The translations under genes were made by a program, and so were the position numbers. DNA of 64,000 nt from Fibrobacterota bacterium. GTDB taxonomy: Bacteria > Fibrobacterota > Fibrobacteria > UBA11236. The notes beneath the pieces are model-generated. The model was not told the DNA's origin. It made no database searches and worked only from the letters and a program-made list of their open reading frames with translations. The stretch spans positions 22,266 to 86,265 of the forward strand of contig JAQBPN010000074.1 in NCBI GenBank assembly GCA_028287505.1, read 5' to 3'. Positions 47,214-64,000 of the stretch are shown here, one piece after another. Each line of letters begins with the position of its first letter. Positions within the stretch are counted from its first letter, which is position 1.

Positions 47214-48095
47214 TCAGATTTCCTGTTTTTCCCGCAACTTCAAGCGGAACCGGGCGAAGCCGGACTTGGGGAGCGGCCGCAACGAGGCGGCTTCGCGGGC
47301 AAATCTGTCTTTGATGGACCCGGATTGGGAATCCCCTTCCCTGCCCAACAGCCACCCAAGCAAAGCGGTGTTGGCGCCTTCCACCGATCGCAAGGGGTAG
47401 CCTTTCAGGAAAAGGGTTTCAATCATCCTTAGAGGCCTCTTCAGGCGCCCTGCCGACCAAGGGGCGAACGGTTCGGCCGTCACTGCCGAAAAACCGTGGT
47501 GCGCGGCGAATTGGGACATGGGAAGATTGAGTCCGGTTCCGCCCAGGAAAGCTTTGATCAAACGGTTGCGGGATTTTTCGTATTCGATTTCCGCGGGAAC
47601 GCCCTGGAAATAACGGAAAGCCCTCGCATGCCATTCGAGAAAGGCGTCCAGATCGGCGTGCTCGCACAGCTCGGCGTAAATCCGTCCCGAATATTCCAGG
47701 GTCAAAGTGAACAGGTGGATCTGGCCGCCTCCCGCTTCCACCTTGCCCAGATCCGCCCGGGCCCGCATTCCCGGCCCGCTTTCCGGCTTGCCGGCAAGGC
47801 TATCCTGCCTCAAGGCCCGGACCTTCCGCTTTACCAAATCGTAGCTTCCGGAATACCCGGCGGCCTGCAGGCGCCGGAAAACCTCAACAGCCCTGGTGGC
47901 GGGCCGCTCCCCGAGCATTCCGGACAAGGTATCGAGGTAACCTGCAAGTTTCCCAGGCTGATTCTGCGGAAAATGAGAGCCGAAGCCGGCGGTCAGGTAT
48001 TTTTTGAGGGTATTTCTGCTTACGCCCAACATCCGGGCGATTTTACGTCGGGAATAGCCCTCCCCGGCCAGAGCCAGGGCAGTCGCCATGTCCAT
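47214..48095 (-). pseudogene. IS21-family transposase (IstA-like) remnant, C-terminally truncated
   Basis: N-terminal HTH (GYSRRKIARMLGVSRNTLKKYL) and part of the DDE core (GYSGSYDLVKRKV, FTLTLEYSGRIYAEL, FRYFQGVPAEIEYEKSRN). Only 293 aa remain, there is no istB and no visible inverted repeats. Confidence 0.5.
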
Positions 48096-50090: not shown

Positions 50091-52625
50091 TCACTCGGCC
50101 TTGTCGAAGCCGAGCTCGAATCCCGAACCCAGCCTCAGGAAATAGATGGGCGCGTCGTCTTCGACGCTCCCCAAGCCTGCGCGCAGGGTTCCCAGGGGCG
50201 TAACATACCCCGCCTGGACCTCCCAATGGAACCGGAACGGGATTTCCTGACCGCCGAAGCTTCCGAGTTCCGCTTGCTCGGGGAAGAAGGTGCCGCCGTA
50301 ATTCCGATAGGCGCCCGCAATCAGCCTCAGGCCCGCCTTTCCGAAAGTAGGCCCGTACTCGAGCTTGACGTCCCGGAAGCTCCGGGAACGCAAAAAGGTG
50401 AAGAAGTACTCGTCCTGGAAGGTAAAGGCGTCGATGCGCCCGGCTTCTATCATGTCATAGAGACCGAAATCCCTGGTTTCCTGATCCGACCAGAAATATT
50501 GGTCGGAAAGCCGGAAATCCCCCAATGTGAAACGCAGGCGGGATTCCAGGCTTGAAAAAGGGTATTTGACCTGGCCGACGGTATTCACGCGATTGTAGTT
50601 CCGAAAACGCAAACGCAATGCGTGCGGATAGAATCCTCCCGGATCCCGCTTTCCAAGGCCCAGGAATGCCGTCTCCTGGAAATCCGTGGACAGGAAGGAA
50701 GGTTCCCCTTCATCGGGGACGGACATCTCGTGTTTCTGGACGGCGGTGCGGAGATAGGCCGATGGGAAGGGGAAAATGGTGAGGAACAACTCCGACAGCG
50801 TCCGGTCCAAGCGAAAGGCCCAAGGGCCCTGGTACCGGGCCCCCTTGGGCGGGACGAAATTGGGATAGAGTTCATTCCAGTTGGTCCGCGTCAGGCCGAT
50901 TTCCAGGTGCAAAGGGAAGACCGGAGCGATCATGAAGCGACCTTGGTACCCCGGACGATGCCCGCCCAACAGCAGACCCGCTTCCGCCTCGAAAGGAATG
51001 TAAAAAGGTTCGCTCCAGGCCACGCCGCCATACACTTCCGGCGGGCGATCGGGGAGTTCCTCTCCCGTGAAGGTGAAGTTGTATCCCGCGCGGAAATCGA
51101 TCTTGGATTTTTCCTTGGCGTCGAAAATAAGCGACGCCTTCTCCTCCGGGCCTCCCCGGGACCATTCCAGATCGAGATCCGTGTAGAAACCGGACTCCAC
51201 CAGGGCGGCGATTGCCCCTTCCCCGCTGCTGTCTTCCGGATTCCTATCCGAAGTGCGGACGATATCGAGCAACAGCTCCCTGCCGCCGGAAGCCAGCGGA
51301 TTGACCGATAGCCGGTTGAGCCCCAGGCGTTCCTCACCGCCGGGCTTGGGGCCGGACGGCGGCGTATCCTTTTTGTGGGTCAGCACGGATTGCAGGATGT
51401 CCATGGACCGTAACGCGGAGGTATACCCCAGGTTCATCCAACGGATGGGATCCGTTTCTTCCGGATCGAATTCACCTTCCGGCTCCAGTTCGATGACCAT
51501 CCTTTCCCGCGCCTGTCCCGCGGAAGCCTCGCCTCCGACCCCGGGGGCCGGAATGCGGCGTTTGGTGCGGAGGTTCAGGGAATCGGTCCAGGAAACGGAA
51601 CCGCCCTCCAGGGACGAGGGCCTCAACCGGTGTCCGGGCTGGATCAAAATGATCCGGTCGCAGGAGAAAGGCAACTTGTCGGACATCACGGCGTTGCCGG
51701 ACAGCAGGGAGCCCGAAGCGAAGGGCCACAGGCGCTGCCGCTGGCGGACAACGCCGGCGGGCAGGAGGGAAGCTTTGACGATATTCTGGAGGTTCCCATC
51801 GGTCAGGACCGCCTCCTTGTCGGAAGTCAGGTCCGAAACCTGCACGGCCAGGCGCCGCGGCGTTTCCGCCAGGTCCTCCACCGGCCCTCCCGGGGCGTCG
51901 TGGGTCAGTTGCGCCACCATCCAGGAAAGGTGCAGGTATTCTCCCGTCTCCCCCATGGTCACATCGCTCCACCGCGATCCGGGAGTCTGCAGGCTTTGCA
52001 GTCCCAGGGGAACCTCCCATTGCATGGGATCCGGTCCGGGCGGGTAAAAGGTCCTCTCCGCGCCCCGGTCCCGGGTAGGAAAGGGACGCAGATATCCTTC
52101 CAACGGCCGGCGCATCAATTCCTTTTCGGTTGCGGCGGAGGAATAGCCCAAGGCCCAAGCCGCGCCGACCACCACCGCTTTCGATTCCGCCAGCACGGCG
52201 TCGGGTTCCAAACCGAATTCTTCCAATGCCTTCAAGACGCCCAGGTAGGCATAGACCAGCTTGCTGTCCGCGCTCAGGAACAGAACGTTGCCGTAGTGGT
52301 CGGGCGTGCGCGCGGTCCTGTTCGCGGGTGCCGCTTGCGGCAAGGCGCTCAAGGAATCCCGCCCGGCTTCCGGGGATTCCGGTTTCCCTCCGACGGCGGG
52401 AACAGGGGGCGTGGACCCGGGAGAAGCCGTGGCCGGAGGAAGGGCCTCGGGCGGCTTCGGGGATTCCTGACGGGAAGCGGAATCCCCTTTGGATGCCTTG
52501 TGCGGTCCGGAAGTATCCAGAAATACAAAAGCGAAGGCGGGGCTCAGGAGTCCGAGCGTCAGGGCCGCGAAAATGAAGCCGCAAAGGGCGTTACGGGCAG
52601 GTTGCCGTCCAGGCGAAATCAGCAT
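50091..52625 (-). CDS. PlpD-like two-domain protein: divergent patatin-like domain plus C-terminal Omp85-type beta-barrel (type Vd-like)
   Basis: Signal peptide. The patatin-like block is LFLSADSKLVYAYLGVLKALEEFG...AESKAVVVGAAWALGYS with a DGN Asp motif. A Pro-rich linker and a long C-terminal amphipathic beta-barrel region follow. Confidence 0.55.
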   Translation of the reverse strand: MLISPGRQPARNALCGFIFAALTLGLLSPAFAFVFLDTSGPHKASKGDSASRQESPKPPEALPPATASPGSTPPVPAVGGKPESPEAGRDSLSALPQAAPANRTARTPDHYGNVLFLSADSKLVYAYLGVLKALEEFGLEPDAVLAESKAVVVGAAWALGYSSAATEKELMRRPLEGYLRPFPTRDRGAERTFYPPGPDPMQWEVPLGLQSLQTPGSRWSDVTMGETGEYLHLSWMVAQLTHDAPGGPVEDLAETPRRLAVQVSDLTSDKEAVLTDGNLQNIVKASLLPAGVVRQRQRLWPFASGSLLSGNAVMSDKLPFSCDRIILIQPGHRLRPSSLEGGSVSWTDSLNLRTKRRIPAPGVGGEASAGQARERMVIELEPEGEFDPEETDPIRWMNLGYTSALRSMDILQSVLTHKKDTPPSGPKPGGEERLGLNRLSVNPLASGGRELLLDIVRTSDRNPEDSSGEGAIAALVESGFYTDLDLEWSRGGPEEKASLIFDAKEKSKIDFRAGYNFTFTGEELPDRPPEVYGGVAWSEPFYIPFEAEAGLLLGGHRPGYQGRFMIAPVFPLHLEIGLTRTNWNELYPNFVPPKGARYQGPWAFRLDRTLSELFLTIFPFPSAYLRTAVQKHEMSVPDEGEPSFLSTDFQETAFLGLGKRDPGGFYPHALRLRFRNYNRVNTVGQVKYPFSSLESRLRFTLGDFRLSDQYFWSDQETRDFGLYDMIEAGRIDAFTFQDEYFFTFLRSRSFRDVKLEYGPTFGKAGLRLIAGAYRNYGGTFFPEQAELGSFGGQEIPFRFHWEVQAGYVTPLGTLRAGLGSVEDDAPIYFLRLGSGFELGFDKAE

Positions 52626-52733: not shown

Positions 52734-53054
52734 ATGTCCGCGACAGTCGCATATATTACCGCCCGGGATCGCGAGCAGGCCCTGCTGATTGGCAAGGCCC
52801 TGTTGGAATCCCGTCTGGTCGCCTGCATCAATCTCATCGATAGGATGAAATCCATGTATTGGTGGGAGGGCCGGCTGGAAGAGGCCGAAGAATGCATCCT
52901 GATCGCCAAAACCGTGGACTCGCGGCATGAGGAAATCATCCGCAGGGTCAAAGAACTACACAGCTATTTGATTCCTTGCGTGGTATTCTGGCCGCTCAGC
53001 GGAGGGAACGCTGAGTATCTGTCCTGGATCGAAAAGGAAACCGGAAATGCCTAG
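52734..53054 (+). CDS. cutA: divalent-cation tolerance protein CutA
   Basis: CutA1 fold signature (YITARDREQALLIGKALLESRLVACIN, SMYWWEG). Confidence 0.85.
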   Translation: MSATVAYITARDREQALLIGKALLESRLVACINLIDRMKSMYWWEGRLEEAEECILIAKTVDSRHEEIIRRVKELHSYLIPCVVFWPLSGGNAEYLSWIEKETGNA

Positions 53055-53601
53055 GCTTTTCGTCGCTTTGGATTTTCCCGAAAGCGTCCGGGACAAGCTG
53101 GCGGAAATATCCCGCGACCTTCCGGGAGCGGATTGGGTCTATTCGGAACAATACCATCTTACCCTGCGTTTCATCGGTGAAACGGATCATGAGACTTTTC
53201 TCGCCGTACGCCAAGGCCTGGGAAGCCTGTCGGCGCGTTCCTTCTATCTCTCCTTGCGCGGAGTGGGATGTTTTCCCCTGCGCGGGGATCCTGACACTCT
53301 CTGGGCCGGCGTGGACCGCAATGAGGATCTGACCCGGCTCCGGCATAGAATCGAAAGCCTGCTGGGGCGGAATGGCGTGCCGCCGGATACCCGCAAGTTT
53401 TTTCCCCACGTTACCTTGGCCCGCATCCGGGAATCCAGGGAAGAATGGGTGGGGCAATACGTTGCCGGTCATTCCCTTTTTTCCATTCCGGAAGTGGCCA
53501 TCCAGGGTGTAAACCTTTATTCCAGCAAACTCACGCCGGAAGGAGCCATCCACACCCTGGAGGGAACGTATCCGTTGGAAGGGATTCTGGAAGCGGAGTG
53601 A
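53047..53601 (+). CDS. thpR: RNA 2',3'-cyclic phosphodiesterase (2H family; LigT/ThpR)
   Basis: Two HxT/SxR motifs (HLTLRF, HVTLAR). Overlaps the cutA stop by 8 nt. Confidence 0.85.
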   Translation: MPRLFVALDFPESVRDKLAEISRDLPGADWVYSEQYHLTLRFIGETDHETFLAVRQGLGSLSARSFYLSLRGVGCFPLRGDPDTLWAGVDRNEDLTRLRHRIESLLGRNGVPPDTRKFFPHVTLARIRESREEWVGQYVAGHSLFSIPEVAIQGVNLYSSKLTPEGAIHTLEGTYPLEGILEAE

Positions 53602-53645: not shown

Positions 53646-54449
53646 TCAGATGAAATCGCGCTTATTGAACCACAGGCCCGCGATCAACAGATAAATACCG
53701 ATGAACATCAGGCCGTATAGGCTGCTGTACAGCACGTAGTGATGGCCGATGGGCAGATCATAAACCACCCGCCCGCGGATATTGAAGTTTTCCATGTTCG
53801 GGATGATGTAATACACCCCTTTGATGACTTTTTCCGTAAAGGGATTGATCACCGGGGTCCCGGGCAACCGTTTTCCGAATTTATGGATGAAGGCCAGATG
53901 GTTTACGATGTCCCCGGAGAGGTGGCCGGCCACGTAGACGCCCAAGGTAAAGAGCGCGCTCATGGTGGGCGTTGAAAAGGCGGAGAAGAGCAGCGCGGCG
54001 GCGGTAATGACGGCCATTTCCACGAAAATGAGATAGATGGCCCAGAGCAGATTCGCCTGCGGCCGCGTGCCGATAAGAATCAGGATGAGGAAGAAGACCA
54101 GCGTCATGAAAGCCAGGTTGAGGGCCAGCACCATCAACAGGCCCAGGTATTTGCCCACGATGAAATGCCACCGCGGCAAAGGCTTGGCCAAAAGGGTCAG
54201 AATCGTCTTGCGCTGGATTTCCTTCTGGACCAGGCCTATCCCCACGAAGATGGACATCAGCAGCCCGACCAGGGACATGACGGCCAGGGAAAAGTCGGAA
54301 ATGACGGTCTGCCTCGCGAACACGGACCATTCCCCGAGCATGAGGGAGAAAATGATGAGACCGATGGCGAAGAGCACCAGGTTGTAGAGGATTTTATCGC
54401 GAACGGTTTCCCGGAAAGCGTTCACGGCGATTATCAACATCGGTTTCAT
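53646..54449 (-). CDS. ABC-2 family transporter permease
   Basis: Six-TM ABC-2 profile. Start at the internal Met MKPMLIIAVN; ATGA-coupled to the ATPase. The 190 aa upstream in the track ORF are rejected. Confidence 0.7.
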   Translation of the reverse strand: MKPMLIIAVNAFRETVRDKILYNLVLFAIGLIIFSLMLGEWSVFARQTVISDFSLAVMSLVGLLMSIFVGIGLVQKEIQRKTILTLLAKPLPRWHFIVGKYLGLLMVLALNLAFMTLVFFLILILIGTRPQANLLWAIYLIFVEMAVITAAALLFSAFSTPTMSALFTLGVYVAGHLSGDIVNHLAFIHKFGKRLPGTPVINPFTEKVIKGVYYIIPNMENFNIRGRVVYDLPIGHHYVLYSSLYGLMFIGIYLLIAGLWFNKRDFI

Positions 54450-55354
54450 ACGTTTTTCGCAACCTCTTCGGCGAGCACGTCTTCCAGGGAGTGACGATTG
54501 CGGCTGATGGATTCGATGCCTATTCCCTGGGCCAAGGCCCATTGCAAAAAGGAACGCTGGGACTGCAGGTCCGGACAGGAGACTGCGCGCGCGCCAAGAG
54601 AAGTCCCTACGCCTTTGGGAAGGTCCTCGGGTTTGACTTCCGCCGTGAGCACGATTTGGTAATGTTCGGCCTCGCCTTCCAGAACCTGGGCGACGGTACC
54701 CTGACGGCGGATTTGCCCGTCGACCACCATGGCCAAGCGCGTGCAAATCGCTTCCACGTCGCTCAGGACGTGGCTGGAATAGAAAACGGTGATTCCCTGG
54801 GAATGCAGGTTCTGCAAAAGGGCGCGCACATCGCGGCGGCCCAGGGGGTCCAGTCCGGACATGGGCTCGTCCAGGATGACCAGCCGCGGCCGGGACAGAA
54901 GCGCCTGGGCCAGACCGATGCGTTGCAACATGCCTTTGCTGTATGTCCGCAGCTTGCGGTCCATGGCCTCCGGGCGGAGGCTGACGAGCTCGGTCACCTC
55001 GGCCACGCGCTTCTTCAGATCCTTCCATGCAAGGCCGGAAAGCTGGCCGTAGAACCAGAGGAATTCCCTGCCGCTGAGGTAATCGTAAAAGTAGGGTTGT
55101 TCCGGAAGGAACCCGACGTTCTGGCGGCTCCGGGGCGAACCCGCCGGCAGACCCATCAGGGTGGCCTTGCCGGAACCGACCTTGAGCAGCCCCAACAGGA
55201 TTTTGATGGTGGTGGATTTGCCCGCGCCGTTGGGCCCGATGAAGCCGTACAGGTCGCCCTCATTGACCTCGAAGCTGACGCCGCGCAACGCTTCCACGGA
55301 TTTGCGCCAGAAGCCGATCCGGTAGGTCTTGCGGAGATCCTCGACCTTGATCAT
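54446..55354 (-). CDS. ABC transporter ATP-binding protein
   Basis: Walker A GPNGAGKST, Q-loop, signature motif LSGGQ-like (YSKGMLQRIGLA), Walker B LVILDEP and H-loop. Confidence 0.85.
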   Translation of the reverse strand: MIKVEDLRKTYRIGFWRKSVEALRGVSFEVNEGDLYGFIGPNGAGKSTTIKILLGLLKVGSGKATLMGLPAGSPRSRQNVGFLPEQPYFYDYLSGREFLWFYGQLSGLAWKDLKKRVAEVTELVSLRPEAMDRKLRTYSKGMLQRIGLAQALLSRPRLVILDEPMSGLDPLGRRDVRALLQNLHSQGITVFYSSHVLSDVEAICTRLAMVVDGQIRRQGTVAQVLEGEAEHYQIVLTAEVKPEDLPKGVGTSLGARAVSCPDLQSQRSFLQWALAQGIGIESISRNRHSLEDVLAEEVAKNV

Positions 55355-55361
55355 GGCCGTG

Positions 55362-55673
55362 TCAGCCCTGTTGGCGCTTGCGGAACCTGCGATAGTAAGT
55401 GATGGCCCTGCCGCCCGCGTAGGATACGAAACCTGCCAGCAGCAGGTAGCGCCCCAGGACGTTGGGATTGAGGGAGAAGTCCTTGTGCTTGAAAAACTCC
55501 CTGGACCCGGTCCGATCCAGATAGAGACAGAGGGCCGCCAGCACCAGGAGACCGATGCCTATCGCCACCAGGTACCAGCTGACTGTCGCCAAGCCGTCCT
55601 CCTTCCCGAAGGAGTCGTAGGCTGAGGGATCGAATTTTCCGTTTTCGGTCGGCTGCTGATCTTGTTCCGGCAT
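55362..55673 (-). CDS. hypothetical small two-TM membrane protein
   Basis: Start at the internal Met MPEQDQ; two hydrophobic helices; stop adjacent to the ABC ATPase start. Confidence 0.35.
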   Translation of the reverse strand: MPEQDQQPTENGKFDPSAYDSFGKEDGLATVSWYLVAIGIGLLVLAALCLYLDRTGSREFFKHKDFSLNPNVLGRYLLLAGFVSYAGGRAITYYRRFRKRQQG

Positions 55674-55844
55674 GGGGGAAAATATAAACGTTCCGGGAGT
55701 CCTTGACCACGATCTGAGCCACCGCCCCCGCGAATGGCCCGTGAATGTTGACTGGCTTCGGCATATAACGGTCCTAGTATAAGCCTTGCGACGGGCGGGA
55801 TGCAACCCCTCCCCGTTCCCTGGGCGCCATGGACCGGGGGTGTT

Positions 55845-56483
55845 TCAGCGTTTCAGATCTTCCGCCAGTACCGTGCGCCCGCCGAACTGTTCCAAAATGA
55901 AAATCGCCTGCTCCAGATGGGTCGGCTTGCGCTGGCGGGCCAGCGACTCCGCCCCCTGGAGGATGAGCGGCAGGGATTTGACGAGATGGAATTTCCAGGC
56001 CCCGCCTTCCCGGATGAATTGGAACACGGGCACGTTAGGCGCTTCCCGCAGGCCGATTTCCCCCACCTCGCCGCGCACCTTCGCCTCGCCGATTTCGGAC
56101 TTGAGGAGGCTTTTCTTCACCGGCCAGCTCTGGATGACAAGCTTGTCCAGGATGGCTACGGGGCGATCGTCGAAGCCGGGGTTCAGGCGCCGCTCCACTC
56201 GCAAGGCAAGGATGCTGAGGATCTCATAAAAGGGACGCTCCGCCAGATAAGCGGGGGCCTCCGTGCGCGAGGCGCGGCGCATGTCGTCTATCCAATCCAG
56301 GGATTCCCGGGACAGATAGGCGGGAAGGGAGTCCGCCTTCCCTTCCTGGACCCGTTGGCGGAAGCGCAGGAAAAAGGCGTCCAGATCCTTGCCCGCCGCC
56401 GGGTCTTCCGGAAGCGGCGGCCCGGAACCGCCGCATGCGGCGAGCAGCAGGAAACCGCAAAAAAGGGCGGGATGGATTCTCAT
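55845..56483 (-). CDS. hypothetical lipoprotein
   Basis: Signal peptide plus lipobox LLLAACGG. Confidence 0.45.
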   Translation of the reverse strand: MRIHPALFCGFLLLAACGGSGPPLPEDPAAGKDLDAFFLRFRQRVQEGKADSLPAYLSRESLDWIDDMRRASRTEAPAYLAERPFYEILSILALRVERRLNPGFDDRPVAILDKLVIQSWPVKKSLLKSEIGEAKVRGEVGEIGLREAPNVPVFQFIREGGAWKFHLVKSLPLILQGAESLARQRKPTHLEQAIFILEQFGGRTVLAEDLKR

Positions 56484-56526
56484 CCGGAAAATATACCAAG
56501 CCGGCGGCGCGGTTTCCGGCCGGTAT

Positions 56527-58887
56527 TCACACGCCGGACTCGAGGCGGTTCCGGTAGATGCGGATCTTCTTCTCCCAGTTGCGCTGGTTGAATTCGTCGT
56601 CGGCCCGGAACTTCTTGAGTTTGTAGGCTTCCAGCAGTTCGGCGATGGCCTGGCGATCGTACGGATTCCATTTCACCAGATACCCCTCGATGATCGTAAG
56701 GGCCTCGTCGATATTGCGGAAATCCACGGTGGTATGCTTGCGCCAGGTCCAGAAGGCCAGGTCCGCCGCTGATCCCGGGATCTTGTCTTCCGACTCCAGC
56801 AGCTTCAGGGCGATGCGGCGTGCGGTCTCGGGATCGTCCTGCACGTAGCTCTGGCCCAGGAGAAACTCCAAGGTTACCGACTCCTGCTCGTCCAGGTCGA
56901 TGTACCCCAAAAGCACCTCGCCCGCCTTGGCATCGTCCCCCATCTGGTAGTAGCAACCCGCCAACAGGGTGGCCATCGCGCTGGACAGCCGGTTTTCCTT
57001 GCGATACCGTTCGATGAAGCCTATGGCGCGCGCATAGTCCCCGCGCTGATACAGGCTTTGCAGGTATTCCAGGATCTGGCTTTCATAAACATCATGGCCG
57101 ATCAGGAAACCCGAAATCACGGAGTCCTTGACCGCGGGCAAGGGGCGTTTGCCGATCAGGCTTTCATATTCCCAGTCCGCGAAGAAGAAACCGTGCCCGG
57201 CGGAACGGCCCAGGTGCGAGGCCTGCCGATCGACATCGTCCTCGTTCATGTGGGCGATCAGGAATTGCAGGTAGGCTTCGTTCTGGACATCGATATCCTG
57301 GCCCAGGATGGCCTTCAACTCCGGAATCTTGGCCTTGGGAACCACGATGCCCATGGTGTTGTACATGTGGCTCCAGTCCTGGCTGAACTCACTCCAGCGC
57401 TGATCGTCCCAGATGTCGTAAGTGTTGACATCATAGGTGACCAAGGTCTGCAACACCTGATCGTAGCCGAACACGGCGATCACATGGCCGGGAATGAACG
57501 CCAGCACCGGAATCCCGTGATCGATGAGCTTGAAGATGTCGTTCAGGGATCTCAAGGGAAGCACCATGTTGGCGAAGCCGCGGGATTCGCTGAAGAAGGC
57601 TTCGTCCGTGATCAGGCTGCCGCGATCCAGTTGGGTGATTTCCGCTCCGATCCGTTTGGCGCCGCTGCGGTCGCCCCAATAGTTGAGGACCAGGCCCAGG
57701 GAATTGGGAACGCAATAGGCGCTTTTGTATTCGGTGCGCGCTTCTATTCCGGGTATGACCACGCGCTTGAGGGTGCTGTCCCTATCCTTTTCCAGCTTGT
57801 CCCGGAAATCGTGGGCTTCCAGAAGCAGGCGGGAATCGTGATAGTACTTCACCAGCACCCGGATGAAGGCTTCCTTGGATTCCTCCAGGTTCCCGCTCTT
57901 GCGGTGCAACAGAGCCACGCGGAATTGCAGGTAGGATTTCAGATTGTCGGAACGGCTCCAGGTCAGGGCCCGGGAATACCAGGGAATGGCCTTTTGGGGC
58001 GTGCCGGATTTTTCATAATGCTGGCCCATGAGCAGAGCGTAATTGATGGGCAATCCGGTGACCACCGCCAGTCCGATCATGGCCAGCCCCACCGAGACCA
58101 GGCCCATGGCGTACGCGCCCAGGAAGCCTTTGCCGGATCGCCAGAGCCGCATGCAATGGTGCACCAGGATGGGGATGCTGGAAAACCACAGGACGAAGAA
58201 GAGGATCTGCCGCGTCCTGTCCAACCAGGCGGGAAAGATGGTCAATTCTTCCACCTGCCAGAGCGGAATGGTGACCAAGAGCAGATGGAGCTGGTTCACG
58301 AAAACATGCGCGCCGGTAACCAGCAGGATGAGGCCCACCAGGCCCGAGAGGGACCAGCCCTCCCCCTCCTTGGAGGTCTGCATGGCCGAGAAGAACAGCA
58401 GCAGGCCGAAGTTCAGCCAGACCACGCCCAGTTCCGAGGAGATGGAATCCACGGATGCATTGATGGGGTAGTAGCTGCTCCAAAGCAGATCGGACAACCA
58501 CTGTTCCATGCTGGCCAGGAATACGGCCATGGGCAACGCCGCCGCCGCCAGGGCCAGGGACGTGCGCAAGCGCCGATATGCGGGAACCGGGGAAGGCGTT
58601 CCCCTCTCGATGGGCATGATGACCATTGCCGCGAAGCCCCAAGCCAGGTTCCAGCCCGCGAGCAGTATGGAAATGAACAACCAATTGAAGGGCAGCCATG
58701 CGACCGCGGGAAGCGGAGCGAGCGAAGCCAGAATCATCAAGGCGCGGAAAAAGCGGGACCGGGCGCGCCCCACATAGGGCATGAAAGGCCACGGTCCGGC
58801 CAGCACCATCAGGAAATACACGAAGCCGGGCAGGTGCGCCAGGACCGGGCGGTGGGAAACGGCGGATTGCGGACCGGGTTTGATCAT
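56527..58887 (-). CDS. polytopic membrane protein with a C39-like (Peptidase_C39_2, papain-fold) domain and C-terminal TPR repeats
   Basis: About 9 N-terminal TM helices, then EYKSAYCVPNSLGLVLNYWG (the C39_2 Cys motif) and GHVIAVFGYD (His motif), then TPR-like repeats (LYQRGDYARAIGFIERY...). Confidence 0.5.
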   Translation of the reverse strand: MIKPGPQSAVSHRPVLAHLPGFVYFLMVLAGPWPFMPYVGRARSRFFRALMILASLAPLPAVAWLPFNWLFISILLAGWNLAWGFAAMVIMPIERGTPSPVPAYRRLRTSLALAAAALPMAVFLASMEQWLSDLLWSSYYPINASVDSISSELGVVWLNFGLLLFFSAMQTSKEGEGWSLSGLVGLILLVTGAHVFVNQLHLLLVTIPLWQVEELTIFPAWLDRTRQILFFVLWFSSIPILVHHCMRLWRSGKGFLGAYAMGLVSVGLAMIGLAVVTGLPINYALLMGQHYEKSGTPQKAIPWYSRALTWSRSDNLKSYLQFRVALLHRKSGNLEESKEAFIRVLVKYYHDSRLLLEAHDFRDKLEKDRDSTLKRVVIPGIEARTEYKSAYCVPNSLGLVLNYWGDRSGAKRIGAEITQLDRGSLITDEAFFSESRGFANMVLPLRSLNDIFKLIDHGIPVLAFIPGHVIAVFGYDQVLQTLVTYDVNTYDIWDDQRWSEFSQDWSHMYNTMGIVVPKAKIPELKAILGQDIDVQNEAYLQFLIAHMNEDDVDRQASHLGRSAGHGFFFADWEYESLIGKRPLPAVKDSVISGFLIGHDVYESQILEYLQSLYQRGDYARAIGFIERYRKENRLSSAMATLLAGCYYQMGDDAKAGEVLLGYIDLDEQESVTLEFLLGQSYVQDDPETARRIALKLLESEDKIPGSAADLAFWTWRKHTTVDFRNIDEALTIIEGYLVKWNPYDRQAIAELLEAYKLKKFRADDEFNQRNWEKKIRIYRNRLESGV

Positions 58888-58894
58888 CTGAGGT

Positions 58895-61525
58895 TCAAGT
58901 GCTCCGGTGCTGCCAGTTTAGGTGGACCTGCATTTCCGGCTTGTCCCCGCGATGGCGGTAGTAGTCGGCGAGCAAGGCGTGGGTCTCCCCTATCGATTTG
59001 TCCACCTTGAGGCTGCGCGCCAGGGCTGCGTAGGCCATGCGGTAATGCCCCTTGCGCATGGATACGGCTCCCTTCATGGTGAGATACTTCGCATCCTCGG
59101 CGAATCCGGGACAGCGGGCCAGCAGGCCCGGAAGCTCATCCACCTTGCCCAGCTTCAGTTTCGTCCAGGCCAGCCGGTACAATGCGGATTCGTTGCCGAA
59201 AGGGTACAGACCCGACAGTTCCGCATATAGGCCTTCGCTCCCTTTCAAATCCCCGCGGCGGGCCAGCAGGGTGGCCAGGGAGTCGGTGTACAGCGGTTCG
59301 TCAGGATCCATCCTATGCAATTCCCGGAACAGGCTGAGGGCCGTATCCATGGCCGCCTTGGACTCGGCCGAGGTGTCCGGCATGGGAGCGACATACCAAT
59401 TCATCATGAGGTAGGAACCCAACTCCCCTTTCATGATCCGGGCGACGATATCCTTTTCCACCTTCTTTTCCGGTCCCAGCTTTTCCATCCAGGCGGGCGG
59501 ATAGTCGTAGAACAGGTTCTGATAATCCCGCGCGTCCGAGGCGAACTCCCAATAGCGGCGCTTGAGATAGACCATGCGCGAAAAGACCTGGTCGCACGGA
59601 TGCAGGGACGCCGCCTGCCGATAAGAGGCCGCGGCCTGCTGGTAGTTTTCATGGTCCTGGTAGTAGACGTCCCCAAGCTCCACCAGGAAGGCGGCCTTGC
59701 GCTCCGAAGGGCCGACGAATGCGCTGTCCCCAAGGATCAGGCCCACCCCGCCGATGTCGAGGATGTGCTCTTCCAGATCGGGCCGGGAAACGAACTTCTG
59801 CAGGCTGTACTTGAACGCGCGGGTCTTCTTCTTCTCGGTTTCGCCCCCGAAAGCCTCCCCGGCATGGTGGTAGAAAAGATCGGTGTCCTCGTTGCGGAAC
59901 CAATCGAAGCCCCCCGGCGCATTGTACGAGTAGTAGTAGAACCCGTCCCTGCCCGGATCGTACCCGGAAATGGGAACCCAATGCCCGTAGAGGCTCAGGA
60001 ACGGAACCCGCCCGGCGGCGAGCGCCGCCTTGATCCGATCGGCGGTGAGAAAACAGGTCGAGGCGGGCAATTGCAGTTGCCGCAACGCCGGAATCAGCTC
60101 CGGAACGTTTTCCATCTTCGGCAAATGCAGTTGCACCGTATTGGACAAATCCAGCAGGCGTTTTTTCAATTCCAGATCCGTCCAATCCGGCTTGAGAAAG
60201 GCGACCGCGCTCAGCAGCGCGTACCATTCCTGATCCAGATAGGATGCGGGCTTGATGAGGGGAAGATCCAATTGCAAAGGCGCGGCGGCAGGCGTCCCCG
60301 CGGCCGTGCGTTCCATCAGCGCCAAGGCGCGATCCGCGCGCTTGCCCATTTTGGCGTAGAAGGGTTTGTTCCGGCACCTGCGCGAAAGGTTCCGCAAAAG
60401 CGCCCGGGCCTTTTCCGGATTACCGGCCTGGTATTCCAATTCCGCCCATTCCTCCAGGAGGAAAGGAGTCCGGTAGGCCGAGGGAGTGCGGGCCAATTGG
60501 GCTTTTGCCAGGAAGCGATAGAGGCCGTAGTCGTGCCCGTTGAAGCTGCGCTCCCGCATCCCGGCCAGGTAATAGTTCCAGTCCCCCAGCATGAAAAGCA
60601 TGTTGGCATACATGAGCAGGGAAGGAAGCCCCAGGAAAAATGCGCGCTTGGCGAACACGTTGGTGCGCCGCGAACCCACCAGATACCCGATGCCGAGCAG
60701 GAACGCGCTGCCGTAAAACACCGCCTTCACCGCCGTCCGCCATTTCTGTTCCAGGTTGAACGGGAGAAGGAGGGTCTCCCGATCGGAACCTTGCAATTGC
60801 GCCGACAGGAAAAGATCGAAGCGCTCCCAGATCATGATCCAGGCCAGGACGGCCAGGACGGCGGCGTAGAAATAAATCAGCGCGCGCAATCCCGGTTTCA
60901 GCGATGCCTTCCAGGCCGCCAGGCCCGCTATGCCCACCAAGGGGGTGGCATAGATCATCCACAGCAATCCGTCCGTATAGACATCGCTGGGGAGATGGAT
61001 GGAAAAATTGTCCAGCTCTCCGATATTGTGGAGCAGGGCCATGATATAGACCAGGGGATAGATGGCCAATGCGGCCGCCAGCAGGGACTGTTGCAGCGAA
61101 TCGAATCGGATTGCTTCCGCCCTTTCCGCCGCTGACGGATTGGCGGGCGCCAAGCCTCCGGAATCCGGTTTTTTCACTTCTTGATCAAAGCGGAACAAGC
61201 TCGCCCGATCCTTGCGGAGCATGGACCAGGCGCTGGCCAACGCCAAAACCATATAGAGTAAAAGCAGCGCGGCCCAATGCAGGGGAGCCAGAAAAAGAAA
61301 AACCTGGAAAACCAGAAAGCCAAGACTGAGAACGAGGTTTCGGTTATAAGCGCCTTTTAGCAGGTTTCTCCGCCGCATTTTGGCGAACAAAAGAAACCAC
61401 AGGGCAAATGGGCCCAATAAAATCGAAACCAGGCCGAACCAAAAGGCCTTCAGTCCAGACGCGAAATCCGGTTTTCGGAGCAATAGGGTCCCTTTTTCAA
61501 TGCAAGCATACTTTTCATAAGCCAA
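58895..61525 (-). CDS. paralogous polytopic membrane protein: C39-like domain lacking the catalytic Cys, plus C-terminal TPR repeats
   Basis: Same architecture as the downstream gene. The His motif is retained (GHWVPISGYD) but the Cys position reads LDQEWYALLSAVAFL. Extensive C-terminal TPR-like helices. Confidence 0.5.
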   Translation of the reverse strand: MAYEKYACIEKGTLLLRKPDFASGLKAFWFGLVSILLGPFALWFLLFAKMRRRNLLKGAYNRNLVLSLGFLVFQVFLFLAPLHWAALLLLYMVLALASAWSMLRKDRASLFRFDQEVKKPDSGGLAPANPSAAERAEAIRFDSLQQSLLAAALAIYPLVYIMALLHNIGELDNFSIHLPSDVYTDGLLWMIYATPLVGIAGLAAWKASLKPGLRALIYFYAAVLAVLAWIMIWERFDLFLSAQLQGSDRETLLLPFNLEQKWRTAVKAVFYGSAFLLGIGYLVGSRRTNVFAKRAFFLGLPSLLMYANMLFMLGDWNYYLAGMRERSFNGHDYGLYRFLAKAQLARTPSAYRTPFLLEEWAELEYQAGNPEKARALLRNLSRRCRNKPFYAKMGKRADRALALMERTAAGTPAAAPLQLDLPLIKPASYLDQEWYALLSAVAFLKPDWTDLELKKRLLDLSNTVQLHLPKMENVPELIPALRQLQLPASTCFLTADRIKAALAAGRVPFLSLYGHWVPISGYDPGRDGFYYYSYNAPGGFDWFRNEDTDLFYHHAGEAFGGETEKKKTRAFKYSLQKFVSRPDLEEHILDIGGVGLILGDSAFVGPSERKAAFLVELGDVYYQDHENYQQAAASYRQAASLHPCDQVFSRMVYLKRRYWEFASDARDYQNLFYDYPPAWMEKLGPEKKVEKDIVARIMKGELGSYLMMNWYVAPMPDTSAESKAAMDTALSLFRELHRMDPDEPLYTDSLATLLARRGDLKGSEGLYAELSGLYPFGNESALYRLAWTKLKLGKVDELPGLLARCPGFAEDAKYLTMKGAVSMRKGHYRMAYAALARSLKVDKSIGETHALLADYYRHRGDKPEMQVHLNWQHRST

Positions 61526-61698: not shown

Positions 61699-61974
61699 CA
61701 TGGTACTTTGGGAGCGGATCTTCGACCTGTTCCCAGCATAAATTGAAAGACAGATTCTCCGTGGGCGTACGAGGAGAAATCAGTGGCTGAACATCTTGTC
61801 TTGTCAGTCGAAATTACGCCGAAGTGCATTATGGGGGACATGACTGTGCTTGATTCGCCGAAGGGCCGCCTTTTCGACCGGGCCCGTAGGAATTCAGCCA
61901 TGTCCGTATTTTCCCCCACCTTTGAATTCTCCCGATGCCTGGGAGTCGCCTTTAGGAGTGTCGCATGAAACCAT

Positions 61975-64000
61975 CCCTCGTCGTCCTCGTTGCGAAGAGG
62001 CTTGCGGATTTGTTCGTCGGTTGGGTCGGCACCCTGTTTTTCGTCGTCACCTATCCCTTCATCGCTCTTCTGATCAAACTGGAATCCAAAGGGCCGGTCC
62101 TATATTCGCAACAGCGGATCGGCATCAATCGCCGCGCCAGTCCCTACCAGATCTTCAAGCCCAAGAAGGAAGATGCGGTGGCGGCGGACGAAGCGGGTGC
62201 GTTCATCCTTTCCAACCGCCAGGTGGACTATGGCGGCGAACTCTTCACCATTCTCAAGTACCGCACCATGCGCGTCGATGCTGAGAGCCTGGGCCCGCAG
62301 TTGGCCAAAAAGGGACTGGATCCGCGCGTAACCAAGATCGGAAAATGGCTGCGCGCTTTGCATGTCGATGAACTGCCCCAGTTCGTCAATATCCTCCGCG
62401 GCGATATGAGCCTGATCGGCCCCCGCCCGGAACGCCCCTATTTTACGCTTCAGTATTCCAAGTCCATCCCCCACTATCTCGATCGCACCTTGTGGATCAA
62501 ACCCGGGCTGACCGGGCTGGCTCAGATCATCCTCGGCTACGATGACTCCCTGGAAAGCGTGGTCCGGAAAGTCCACTTCGACTATTCCTACCGCTCCGCC
62601 ACCAGCAGCTTCCTGACCTGGATCCGGATGGAAATCTGGGTGGCCGTCAATACCGTCCTCTACCTGCTGATCAAACCCCAGTTCGAAGGCGGCGAGAATC
62701 GGGACTTGGTAGGCCTCCGCCGCGCCAGGGTGGTCGATTTCCGGGCCAACTCGCCGTCGAAGAAGGACCTTCCGGAGATCAAGACCCTGGTGCACCAGCA
62801 TCAGACCAAGAGATCGATGATCCTGGTGGGGAGCAGCCCATACGAACTGAGCCGCACGCTGAAGGACATGGAACTCAATCCCAAGAAAACCCTGGACGTG
62901 CAGGTGAGCCCGGATGAGAACTGGGATCTGGAAGACCTGGGATTCCTGATCAATCTGGTGCACCGCGTCAAACAGACCGGCGGCCGCGTGGCCATCAAGA
63001 ATTCAAGCCCGCGCGTCCAGAAAATGCTGAAGGAAATCCACATGGACAGGGTGGTGGATCTCCACCGCCCCCAGGATACCGTCAAGAACTTCATGACCGT
63101 GGACGTGGAATGCTGGTTCCACGCATACAACCTCAAGGAGCAGGTCCCGCCCTCCACCTGGCATCTTCAGCCCACCCGCGTGGTGGCGAACGTGAAGAAA
63201 ATCCTGGACCTGTTCCGCACCCACGACACCAAGGCGACCTTCTTCGTGCTTGGATGGGTCGCCGATCATTTCCCGGATGTGGTGAAGATGATCGAGGCGG
63301 AAGGCCACGAAATCGGCACCCACGGCTACTACCATAACCTGCTGACCAACATGACTCCGTCCCAGTTCGAAGAGGATTTGGAAAAGTCCCTGGTTTCCAT
63401 CGGCAAACTCACCAAGCAGACCATCATCGGCCACCGCGCATCGAACTTCACCATCGTGGAATCGACCTTGTGGGCCTTGGAAATCCTGCATAAATACGGC
63501 ATCGAATACGATTCCAGCGTCTTCCCCATCAAGCGGGAACGTTACGGCATTTCCAAATATCCCAACCGCCTGCCCCACCAGATGCAATTCCAGAACGGGA
63601 AACAGATCACGGAAATCCCCCTTTCAACCCTGGGATTGGGAAACAAACTGCTTCCGATTTCCGGGGGCGGATACCTGCGACTTTATCCGTATGCGGTCAC
63701 GGACCGGTACATCGAGCAGAAGAACCAGCGCGGGCTGCCCGCCATGGTCTATTTCCATCCCTGGGAACTGGACACGGAACAGAAGCGGCTGAACGTGGGG
63801 GCCATGAAAGGCTTCCAGCATTACGTGAATCTGGACAGCACGGAATGGAAGCTGAGCCGTATGATGGAGCGGTTTTTCTTCACCTCGGTCAAGGAGAACC
63901 TGCAATCCCGCCGCGTGCAGTCCTTGTTGCGCAAGAACCCCGTGAAAGTGGAACGGATGATGGGGATTGCCACCGGGGAAGAAGGCGCGTTCCGCCTGGC
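61975..64000 (+). CDS. fusion protein: polyprenyl-phosphate sugar transferase (PglC/EpsL-like), STAS-like domain and DUF3473/PEP-CTERM-locus-type polysaccharide deacetylase; 3'-partial
   Basis: ATG at 61975 is preceded by an aggag RBS. Manual translation is stop-free to the window end (over 675 aa). Sugar-transferase motifs: KRLADLFVGWVGTLFF, YRTMRVDAE, DELPQFVNILRGDMSLIGPRP. Deacetylase motifs: FMTVDVECWFH, TKATFFVLGWVADHFPDVVKMIEAEGHEIGTHGYYH, GGGYLRLYPY, YFHPWELD. Absent from the ORF track, presumably because there is no stop inside the window. Confidence 0.75.

Follow-up and report, generated by a model that had tools for sequence, protein, structure and literature searches.

The C39 domains of PCAT exporters (ComA, LagD and PCAT1; PF03412) belong to the papain-like superfamily and lie in the cytoplasm, fused to the exporter N-terminus, where they cut double-glycine leaders. 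Papain-fold domains also serve as acyltransferases (BtrH), transglutaminases and phytochelatin-synthase-like enzymes. In Pseudomonas aeruginosa, TgpA (PA2873) combines a polytopic inner-membrane anchor with a periplasmic transglutaminase-like Cys-His-Asp domain of the papain superfamily. In the LbcA-CtpA, NlpI-Prc and BepA systems, which have lipoprotein partners, a periplasmic protease receives its substrates through TPR modules; there the TPR adaptor is a lipoprotein distinct from the protease, which is a serine or metallo enzyme. The C39-like peptidases of PF13529, represented by the Bacillus anthracis structure 3erv (clan CA papain fold), have been described as single-domain, soluble proteins (PMC10318531).

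The window analysed here is a 64,000-nt stretch of DNA from a Fibrobacterota metagenome-assembled genome (MAG) from soil. Six ORFs between positions 53646 and 61525, all on the minus strand, were found as listed in the initial annotation, and encode two large membrane proteins (here big1 and big2), a lipoprotein, a small membrane protein, an ABC transporter ATPase and an ABC-2 permease. The accompanying picture of a tight operon holds in part: the big1-big2 gap is 7 nt and the ATPase stop overlaps the permease start (ATGA), but the lipoprotein gene and the probable start of the small-protein gene (nt 55673) are about 170 nt apart, so that one six-gene operon is not evident. What emerges from the comparison of related loci is that big1-big2 is a real, rare and uncharacterised two-gene enzyme/pseudoenzyme membrane module.

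The catalytic subunit, big2 (786 aa; 56527..58887, minus strand), has approximately eight TM helices, followed by a TPR linker, then a Peptidase_C39_2-like domain and finally C-terminal TPRs. The C39_2-like domain and TPRs, originally read from the letters of this gene, were both recovered by Pfam profile searches, the former at 24.0 bits, exactly the gathering cut-off of 24 for Peptidase_C39_2 (PF13529), while big2 orthologues of other phyla reach 28.3-30.7 bits. The AF2 model of big2 (pLDDT 82.6 overall, below 50 near the catalytic Cys at residues 383-393) matched 3erv in Foldseek with a probability of 1.0 and a target-normalised TM-score of 0.54. Both motifs described earlier are present, YCVPNSLGL around the Cys and PGHVIAVFGYD around the His; Cys392, His468 and Asp486 are invariant in an alignment of 24 Fibrobacterota sequences and, together with the CxPN and GYD motifs, are kept in all 40 of 40 divergent representatives of the family. 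The family is rare, with 68 representatives at E ≤ 1e-30 among the 1.84 billion searched. We infer that big2 is a predicted active cysteine hydrolase, either a peptidase or an amidase, with a Cys-His-Asp triad; because the papain fold also serves non-peptidase enzymes, the label "peptidase" is unproven.

The other subunit, big1 (58895..61525, minus strand), has the same layout: about eight TM helices precede a TPR linker, which is followed by a papain-fold domain of C39-like type and by C-terminal TPRs. Its start codon is uncertain (TTG 61525 or TTG 61483), and the public gene call, which begins at ATG 61378, would cut off the conserved first TM helix. Orthologues in other phyla were found at E values of 1e-12 to 3e-18. 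The aligned catalytic site of the big1 family is devoid of Cys in Fibrobacterota, Desulfobacterota and Acidobacteriota, and within the "His" motif the only invariant residues of the family alignment are W516, G521, D523 and R526. The initial annotation held that this paralog keeps only the His. His515 is indeed present in this genome, but the position is variable in the family (H, R, Q, S, G, T or N), and the His is also missing in other phyla (Desulfobacterota and Acidobacteriota). With neither a conserved Cys nor a conserved His in its family, big1 is therefore, judged from sequence, a pseudoenzyme. The suggested enzyme/pseudoenzyme pair of membrane-anchored C39-like/TPR proteins is thus borne out, the triad being kept in big2 and lost in big1.

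Tandem paralogy of the two proteins, also proposed at the outset, is not visible to BLASTP (E = 1) but is supported by profile and structure evidence. When the two family profiles are compared with hhalign, they align across 434 columns with E 1.2e-6; big1-like proteins of other phyla match the profile built for big2 with E values from 1.5e-7 to 1.3e-5; and the AF2 model of big1 (pLDDT 82.2) matches papain-fold C39-like 3erv as that of big2 does. big1 and big2 are remote, ancient paralogs. No family in Pfam or NCBIfam covers the membrane domain or big1, and no solved relative of either protein was found by sequence. The membrane domain had been described as having nine helices, whereas hydropathy and the models read eight. 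Odd loops carry a net positive charge in the two families (about +0.6 to +4.7), and even loops are neutral or acidic (0 to -3.2). Since the loop preceding TM8 is positive in both (+2.2 in big2, +3.1 in big1), the C-terminal domains would lie outside the cytoplasm and are predicted to be periplasmic, a topology based only on charge bias (the positive-inside rule) and hydropathy.

Among the roughly 40 related loci examined, the order big1 then big2 is the sole constant. The two genes are adjacent, amid otherwise unrelated neighbours, in every locus with upstream DNA except the distant L042, where two shorter genes upstream of big2 replace the single big1, and in most gene-called loci they overlap (often at the stop and start codons) or are separated by a gap of a few nucleotides. 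The pair also occurs in Desulfatibacillum alkenivorans and in two MAGs, one from Desulfobacteraceae and one from Acidobacteriota, in all of which the remaining neighbours are different; it is maintained together in at least three bacterial phyla, and the orthology of each subunit holds across phyla. Conservation of the gene neighbourhood therefore extends to big1-big2, but not to the other four genes, which vary. The lipoprotein (212 aa; 55845..56483, minus strand; lipobox LLAAC) was correctly recognised as such, its lipobox and Cys being kept in 18 of 18 orthologues, which share a conserved body of about 190 aa matching no Pfam or NCBIfam family. Its gene lies directly 3' of big2 in most Fibrobacterota loci, is missing in some (L001/L025/L026, L029 and L035) and was not seen downstream of the pair in any locus examined outside Fibrobacterota; it is a Fibrobacterota-specific companion of the pair. 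The view that no characterised system has such a composition also stands with respect to Pfam and NCBIfam families, solved structures searched by sequence and the literature, where nothing was found on the architecture of this pair.

The reading we favour, with a probability of about 0.6, is that the big1-big2 module, joined in Fibrobacterota by the downstream lipoprotein, is a membrane hydrolase complex that cleaves an envelope substrate, and that the neighbouring genes are not components of it. The big1 and big2 genes would be translationally coupled, and gene coupling together with paralogy suggests that the two products assemble as a heteromer in the cytoplasmic membrane. Each subunit would contribute a membrane domain of eight helices, with conserved acidic outer-face loops, and a periplasmic region made up of TPRs, the C39-like papain fold and further TPRs. 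Within such a complex big2 would act as the active cysteine hydrolase and big1 most likely as a scaffold, substrate receptor or allosteric partner, while the TPR arrays may bind substrate or partner proteins. The complex would act at the outer face of the inner membrane, cleaving and possibly transferring a peptide bond of an envelope substrate, which might be a cell-wall peptide or else a protein, secreted or lipid-anchored. Domain architecture, predicted fold, triad conservation or loss and the cross-phylum gene pair come directly from the analysis; the topology, heteromer formation, hydrolase activity and everything concerning the substrate are inferred.

A more specific version of this reading is a regulated cell-wall hydrolase, in which big2 would cut peptidoglycan stem peptides or cross-links and big1 and the lipoprotein would control place and timing. 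CHAP, NlpC/P60 and endolysin C39_2 domains cut such stem peptides or cross-links, and PF13529 domains are listed among the catalytic domains of phage endolysins (PMC8223927; PMC8310338). The predicted periplasmic location would also suit a wall hydrolase. Dead-paralog or lipoprotein activators are a recurrent theme for wall hydrolases, as illustrated by EnvC and NlpD for amidases and by LbcA or NlpI for proteases; LbcA appears among the TPR structural matches, at rank 47. However, no LysM, SPOR or PG_binding domain was detected in any component with Pfam or NCBIfam, no locus shows linkage to division or elongation genes, so rare and patchy a family would be unusual for core wall machinery, and it is apparently absent from Fibrobacter. 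This version is unlikely, although it is the foremost of the alternatives.

The initial annotation favoured a broader arrangement, in which all six genes and the divergent upstream gene, a Bac_transf, Polysacc_deac_1 and DUF3473 fusion, form one envelope system in which a surface polymer or peptide, processed or assembled by the C39-like/TPR proteins, would be carried by the ABC-2 exporter. The small membrane protein (about 103 aa; 55362..55673, minus strand) probably starts at Met45 of the listed 147-aa ORF and has two predicted TM helices, the first from a hydropathy scan and the second read from the sequence; orthologues of 93-109 aa lie immediately 5' of the ATPase gene in L001, L003 and L005. 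A 96-aa gene occupies the corresponding position in Fibrobacter sp. (L039), matched by position only. The ATPase (302 aa; 54446..55354, minus strand) matches ABC_tran at E 2.4e-25, its best NCBIfam matches being DrrA and GldA, both under cut-off. The ABC-2 permease (267 aa; 53646..54449, minus strand) matches ABC2_membrane_2 (PF12679) at 38.5 bits. A two-TM protein and an ABC-2 transporter do follow the lipoprotein gene. The transporter had been described as Wzm/Wzt-sized; the permease is NosY-like, and no Wzm/Wzt family occurs among its matches.

In favour of one system, the window's own clade keeps all six genes together with the fusion gene, the trio and the sugar-transferase gene consistently adjoining the pair, and the same set recurs in L005 and L024 (about 45% identity). 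Co-transcription would also fit the short gaps and the overlap between the ATPase and permease genes. Exopolysaccharide export scaffolds include TPR and lipoprotein components, which the parts encoded here resemble. Nevertheless, this adjacency weighs little, because the housekeeping genes LigT, CutA1 and MoaA are equally syntenic where all six genes co-occur, and an 844-aa gene is equally in order, pointing to general synteny; the ~170-nt interval also interrupts the series. In deep Fibrobacterota lineages the trio is displaced or absent: it lies 8 kb from the pair in L003/L032, and L004/L028 and L035 lack it within 10 kb, as do L029 and L031 within their shorter downstream stretches. Nor does it adjoin the pair in the Desulfobacterota, the Acidobacteriota or other loci. 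Conversely, Fibrobacter sp. locus L039 carries the trio without the pair nearby, no pair having been found in Fibrobacter, and the permease orthologues there (267 aa) show about 51% identity; the permease family is far larger, with 1713 homologues at E ≤ 1e-10. In L001 ResB/CcsA stands upstream in place of the sugar-transferase gene, as MnmG does in L003 and L004, whereas L005 retains the sugar-transferase gene with MnmG beyond. A coupled six-gene system is therefore quite unlikely, only big1-big2 being constant. The trio is a separate, far more widespread module, the small-protein gene goes with those of the ABC transporter rather than with the pair and is probably not part of the pair's module, and the transporter and sugar-transferase genes look like bystanders, although they may have a lineage-specific functional link with the pair.

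It is more doubtful still that the pair is a sorting or transpeptidase enzyme resembling exosortase, rhombosortase or PorU, whose membrane domain would hold an anchored protein substrate while the Cys-His domain removes a signal at the C- or N-terminus and may pass the protein on to an acceptor, either lipid or glycan. In support, the Cys-His catalytic domain is joined here to a polytopic membrane domain whose outer-face loops are conserved, sugar-transferase genes of the adjoining DUF3473/deacetylase type are associated with PEP-CTERM loci, and there are weak matches to PrsT (the XrtA-system TPR protein). However, the linkage to the sugar-transferase gene is unconserved, the PrsT matches score 13-18 bits against a cut-off of 312, no exosortase family was matched, and the catalytic domain is a soluble papain fold rather than an intramembrane site. 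A split bacteriocin-type system, in which a cytoplasmic C39 domain removes double-glycine leaders and the adjacent ABC transporter exports the products, is highly improbable and largely refuted: a C39-like fold does adjoin an ABC transporter in the window, but the domain matches PF13529 and not PF03412 and is predicted to be periplasmic, and the transporter, an ABC-2 type whose ATPase is a separate protein, is no PCAT-type exporter and is unlinked to the pair beyond one Fibrobacterota clade.

Returning to the membrane hydrolase complex, the nearest relatives of big2 are the PF13529 C39-like peptidases, with which it shares the Cys...His...Asp order and an HMM match at or above cut-off. Its domain, in contrast, lies between TPR arrays behind an 8-helix membrane domain and is encoded next to a dead paralog, and no characterised PF13529 member with this architecture was found in the literature. 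The C39 domains of PCAT exporters also have a catalytic Cys/His pair, whereas the big2 domain is predicted to be periplasmic and is not fused to a transporter, and the neighbouring ABC-2 transporter is not conserved with the pair. For that transporter only, the comparison is with NosY/COG1277 ABC-2 permeases and their DrrA-like ATPase; JGI annotates the permease orthologues as "Cu-processing system permease", but all specific NCBIfam models fall under cut-off and no NosD or NosL genes are adjacent, and the function of the trio appears independent of the pair. TgpA resembles big2 in having a polytopic anchor followed by a Cys-His-Asp domain, predicted to be periplasmic in big2, but its domain is Transglut_core rather than C39_2, it is not known to have TPR arrays or an obligatory dead paralog, and no TgpA-type sequence match to the pair was observed. 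Unlike in LbcA-CtpA, NlpI-Prc and BepA, the TPRs of the pair are part of the predicted cysteine hydrolase and of its dead paralog themselves, both integral membrane proteins.

All six minus-strand open reading frames that the initial annotation had described at 53646-61525, in a Fibrobacterota MAG from soil, were recovered as reported. The first two encode large membrane proteins, here called big1 (58895-61525, 876 aa from a TTG start) and big2 (56527-58887, 786 aa), whose genes are separated by 7 nt. They are followed by genes for a lipoprotein (55845-56483, 212 aa), a small membrane protein (listed as 55362-55805, but ~103 aa if read from Met45 at nt 55673), an ABC ATPase (54446-55354, 302 aa), and an ABC-2 permease (53646-54449, 267 aa). 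An ATGA overlap joins the ATPase stop to the permease start, and ~170 nt lie between the lipoprotein gene and the likely small-protein start. A plus-strand gene fusing Bac_transf, Polysacc_deac_1, and DUF3473 domains (61965-64000) is divergent from big1 and runs past the end of the window. An NCBI entry named 'hypothetical protein [Fibrobacteres bacterium]' is 100% identical to big2. The start of big1 is ambiguous between TTG 61525 and TTG 61483, and the public call (P0062, 827 aa, ATG 61378) would drop a first membrane helix that is conserved in the family. A promoter and terminator scan gave no signal above shuffled expectation, Rfam gave no match in the locus, and PADLOC returned generic ATPase matches only, with no defense-system match. 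Beyond the permease gene lie the CutA1 and LigT (2',5' RNA ligase family) genes (52734-53601, plus strand, 8-nt overlap), a unit retained beside the locus in many Fibrobacterota, and an 844-aa ORF without a Pfam match (50091-52625, minus strand), which, at 28-67% identity, keeps its place behind LigT and CutA1 in many Fibrobacterota loci. Further on, a 293-aa ORF with HTH_7 and integrase-core (rve) domains (47214-48095, minus strand) resembles an IS or transposase gene.

Comparison of ~40 related loci, including 28 from Fibrobacterota, those of Desulfatibacillum alkenivorans DSM 16219, a Desulfobacteraceae MAG, and an Acidobacteriota MAG, as well as further assemblies, showed big1 followed directly by big2 in every locus with upstream DNA; where gene calls exist, the two genes mostly overlap or lie a few nucleotides apart. 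This adjacency is the only constant of the neighborhood, and outside Fibrobacterota all other neighbors differ, being unrelated housekeeping genes. The pair is thus present in Fibrobacterota, Desulfobacterota, and Acidobacteriota, and no search for it returned a member from Fibrobacter. The big2 family is rare yet phylogenetically scattered: when its profile was run exhaustively with HMMER against 1.84 billion representative proteins, only 68 sequences reached E ≤ 1e-30, and 82 reached E ≤ 1e-10, with only a few source names ('hypothetical protein', 'TPR repeat protein', and 'C39 family peptidase'). Literature searches returned no description of this architecture. L042 (3615-6001), from the big2 subgroup most distant from the others, has two genes of 342 and 453 aa upstream instead of one of ~850 aa, which may reflect a split or frameshifted big1 or another partner altogether.

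The C39-like domain originally proposed for big2 is borne out by family, structural, and conservation evidence. Against Peptidase_C39_2 (PF13529, papain-like clan CA), big2 scores 24.0 bits, exactly the gathering cut-off of 24 bits, and its orthologs score 28.3, 30.7, and 30.7 bits; several TPR families also match. The AF2 model of big2 (pLDDT 82.6) matches the Bacillus anthracis C39-like peptidase 3erv in Foldseek (probability 1.0, TM-score 0.54) and agrees with a papain-like alpha+beta fold, in which the nucleophile lies just before a helix start and the His on a beta-strand, with low model confidence around the catalytic Cys. Cys392, His468, and Asp486 are invariant across 24 Fibrobacterota big2 sequences and, together with Pro394, Asn395, Pro466, and Gly474, in 40/40 divergent representatives of the family, giving the invariant catalytic signature CxPN...PxH...GYD...YD. 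NCBIfam yields no specific assignment; the PA2778-family cysteine peptidases (NF033920) are not supported, with 14.1 bits (E 0.024) against a cut-off of 150. A big2-profile search of PDB sequences returned TPR proteins only. The best-supported reading of the sequence and model data is that big2 would be an active, periplasm-facing papain-fold cysteine hydrolase.

BLASTP detects no significant similarity between big1 and big2 (E = 1), so that profile and structure methods were needed to assess paralogy. Alignment of the two family alignments with hhalign gave a probability of 90.8% and E 1.2e-6 over 434 columns, which run from the membrane domain through the TPR linker into the C39 region. Taken by single domain, the hhalign results are weak (E 1.9e-4 for the membrane domain and 6.7e-3 for the C39 domain), and the predicted paralogy becomes convincing only from full-length and cross-phylum comparisons. 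The big1-like proteins of three non-Fibrobacterota genomes match both profiles, with E 1e-12 to 3e-18 for big1 and 1.5e-7 to 1.3e-5 for big2. Moreover, the AF2 model of big1 (pLDDT 82.2) has the same order of elements as that of big2, namely membrane helices, TPR-like helices, an alpha/beta domain, and TPRs. In Pfam, big1 gives weak TPR matches alone; PF13529 does not match it, even at E ≤ 10 with the central domain, and the central-domain profile finds no C39 family in Pfam or among PDB sequences. The LCP-family protein TagT, which appeared in the big1 central-domain searches at a non-significant E of 0.07, was taken as a chance match.

In the hhalign alignment, big1 carries a Leu at the position of the big2 Cys. 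The initial annotation held that big1 keeps only the His; this is true of the present genome, whereas across the family the 'His' of the GHWVPISGYD motif varies (H/R/Q/S/G/T/N), with only W516, G521, D523, and R526 of the motif invariant, and in orthologs from other phyla both Cys and His are missing. With no aligned Cys and a varying or absent His, big1 is a member of the fold but a pseudoenzyme. Profiles and predicted structures therefore uphold the proposed paralogous enzyme/pseudoenzyme pair, in which big1 is entirely dead and which arose by duplication before the pair spread across phyla. The most divergent Fibrobacterota big1 (L003, 7529-10000) has a Cys where others have Tyr435 (NWCGIL vs EWYALL), a position different from that paired by hhalign with Cys392 of big2.

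Each protein has eight membrane helices according to hydropathy and the AF2 helices, rather than the nine first proposed. Loop charge alternates in the alignments of the two families: it is net positive (about +0.6 to +4.7) for loops 1-2, 3-4, 5-6, and 7-8, and neutral or negative (0 to -3.2) for loops 2-3, 4-5, and 6-7. By the positive-inside rule, this charge pattern predicts that the C-terminal TPR-C39-TPR regions of both proteins are periplasmic. The best-conserved loop motifs, EQWLxDxLWSxYYPVNAS and IPxWQ...IFPxW in big2 and FSIHLPSDVYTDG in big1, are predicted to lie on the same side as these regions. The membrane domain matches no described family, and the whole-model structure-search lists contained no structural relative of it; since TPR matches dominated every such search, its fold is left unclassified.

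Beyond the pair, the lipoprotein gene follows big2 in most, but not all, Fibrobacterota loci, with the lipobox Cys conserved in 18/18 orthologs. In the other phyla examined, none was seen behind the pair, and neither the lipoprotein nor the small protein matches a family in Pfam or NCBIfam. In D. alkenivorans the position behind the pair is taken by a 193-aa multi-pass membrane protein, which is unrelated and was rejected as a lipoprotein counterpart.

The broader proposal of a six-gene glycan or export system, in which the pair would work with an exporter of Wzm/Wzt size and the divergent sugar-transferase/deacetylase gene, fares less well. The trio of small membrane protein, ATPase, and permease genes adjoins the pair only in the clade with ~45% identity or more to the window. 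Four unrelated genes separate trio and pair in L003 and L032, the trio is absent within 10 kb of the pair in L004/L028 and L035, and it is absent within the shorter downstream DNA of L029 and L031. The permease matches PF12679 (ABC2_membrane_2) and PF12730 only, and neither it nor the ATPase matches a glycan-exporter family, which argues against a Wzm/Wzt-type polysaccharide exporter. The permease family is very large (1713 matches at E ≤ 1e-10) and includes orthologs of 267 aa and ~51% identity in Fibrobacter sp. In one Fibrobacter sp. locus (L039, 8791-10804), a 96-aa gene precedes ABC_tran and ABC2_membrane_2 genes; PLD-like and T2SSE genes flank this set, a protein with a weak Patatin domain is encoded close by, and there is no big pair nearby, a setting which suggests that the trio has its own conserved role. 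The sugar-transferase gene likewise lies upstream of the pair in some lineages only; in L005, a gene for 684 aa with the same domain fusion is transcribed divergently from the pair. Where all these genes co-occur, LigT, CutA1, MoaA, and the 844-aa gene are equally syntenic, so adjacency reflects lineage synteny rather than a functional system. With the trio separable and the sugar-transferase linkage not conserved, the six-gene system is not supported, though a lineage-specific link between pair and trio may exist in the window's own clade. For annotation, synteny in one lineage is insufficient to count neighboring ABC-2 transporter and glycan genes into a 'system'.

The best-supported interpretation is instead that the two genes form a self-contained module whose products make up a heteromeric complex in the inner membrane, of which we infer both the topology and the heteromeric state. 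In such a complex, big1 would have a scaffolding, receptor, or regulatory role, substrate or partner would be bound by the TPR arrays, and a dedicated lipoprotein would join in Fibrobacterota. Candidate activities would include cleavage of a cell-wall peptide, maturation of an envelope protein, or a sortase-like transfer, the first being considered because PF13529 domains occur in endolysins (PMC8223927; PMC8310338).

A bolder possibility, to which we assign roughly one chance in four, is that big1-big2 represents the first of a new class of heteromeric machines in the inner membrane, in which a polytopic domain of unrecognized fold would offer a membrane-embedded or lipid-linked substrate to the periplasmic papain-fold catalytic domain, the latter gated by an obligatory dead paralog. 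If true, several phyla would share a new activity in envelope maturation, sorting, or transfer (peptidase or transpeptidase/acyltransferase). Strictly conserved enzyme/pseudoenzyme pairs in the bacterial inner membrane are, to our knowledge, uncommon and usually mark a regulated envelope activity. As the cultured D. alkenivorans DSM 16219 carries the pair, it is open to experiment, and knowing what it acts on could uncover a new step in the processing of envelope proteins or of the cell wall.

Among known systems, the GldA/GldF/GldG gliding-motility transporter is not matched (GldA 179 bits against a cut-off of 402.6, no GldF match, and no GldG-like gene among the locus ORFs on inspection), nor are the exosortase/PEP-CTERM systems (PrsT 13.4 and 18.3 bits against 312, with no exosortase match among the six proteins). 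A classical double-glycine-leader role is largely excluded, because family, predicted location, and transporter type and linkage all differ. The bacteriocin-processing peptidase of PCAT transporters is a cytoplasmic PF03412 domain fused to the N-terminus of an ABC exporter; PF03412 has no match here at E ≤ 0.1. In contrast, the PF13529 domain of big2 is embedded in a membrane-TPR protein and, by the positive-inside rule in both families, predicted to lie outside the cytoplasm, and the transporter subunits are separate ABC-2-type genes unlinked to the pair. The pair is real, rare, and uncharacterized, an enzyme/pseudoenzyme membrane pair with an architecture new among the C39-like papain-fold peptidases.
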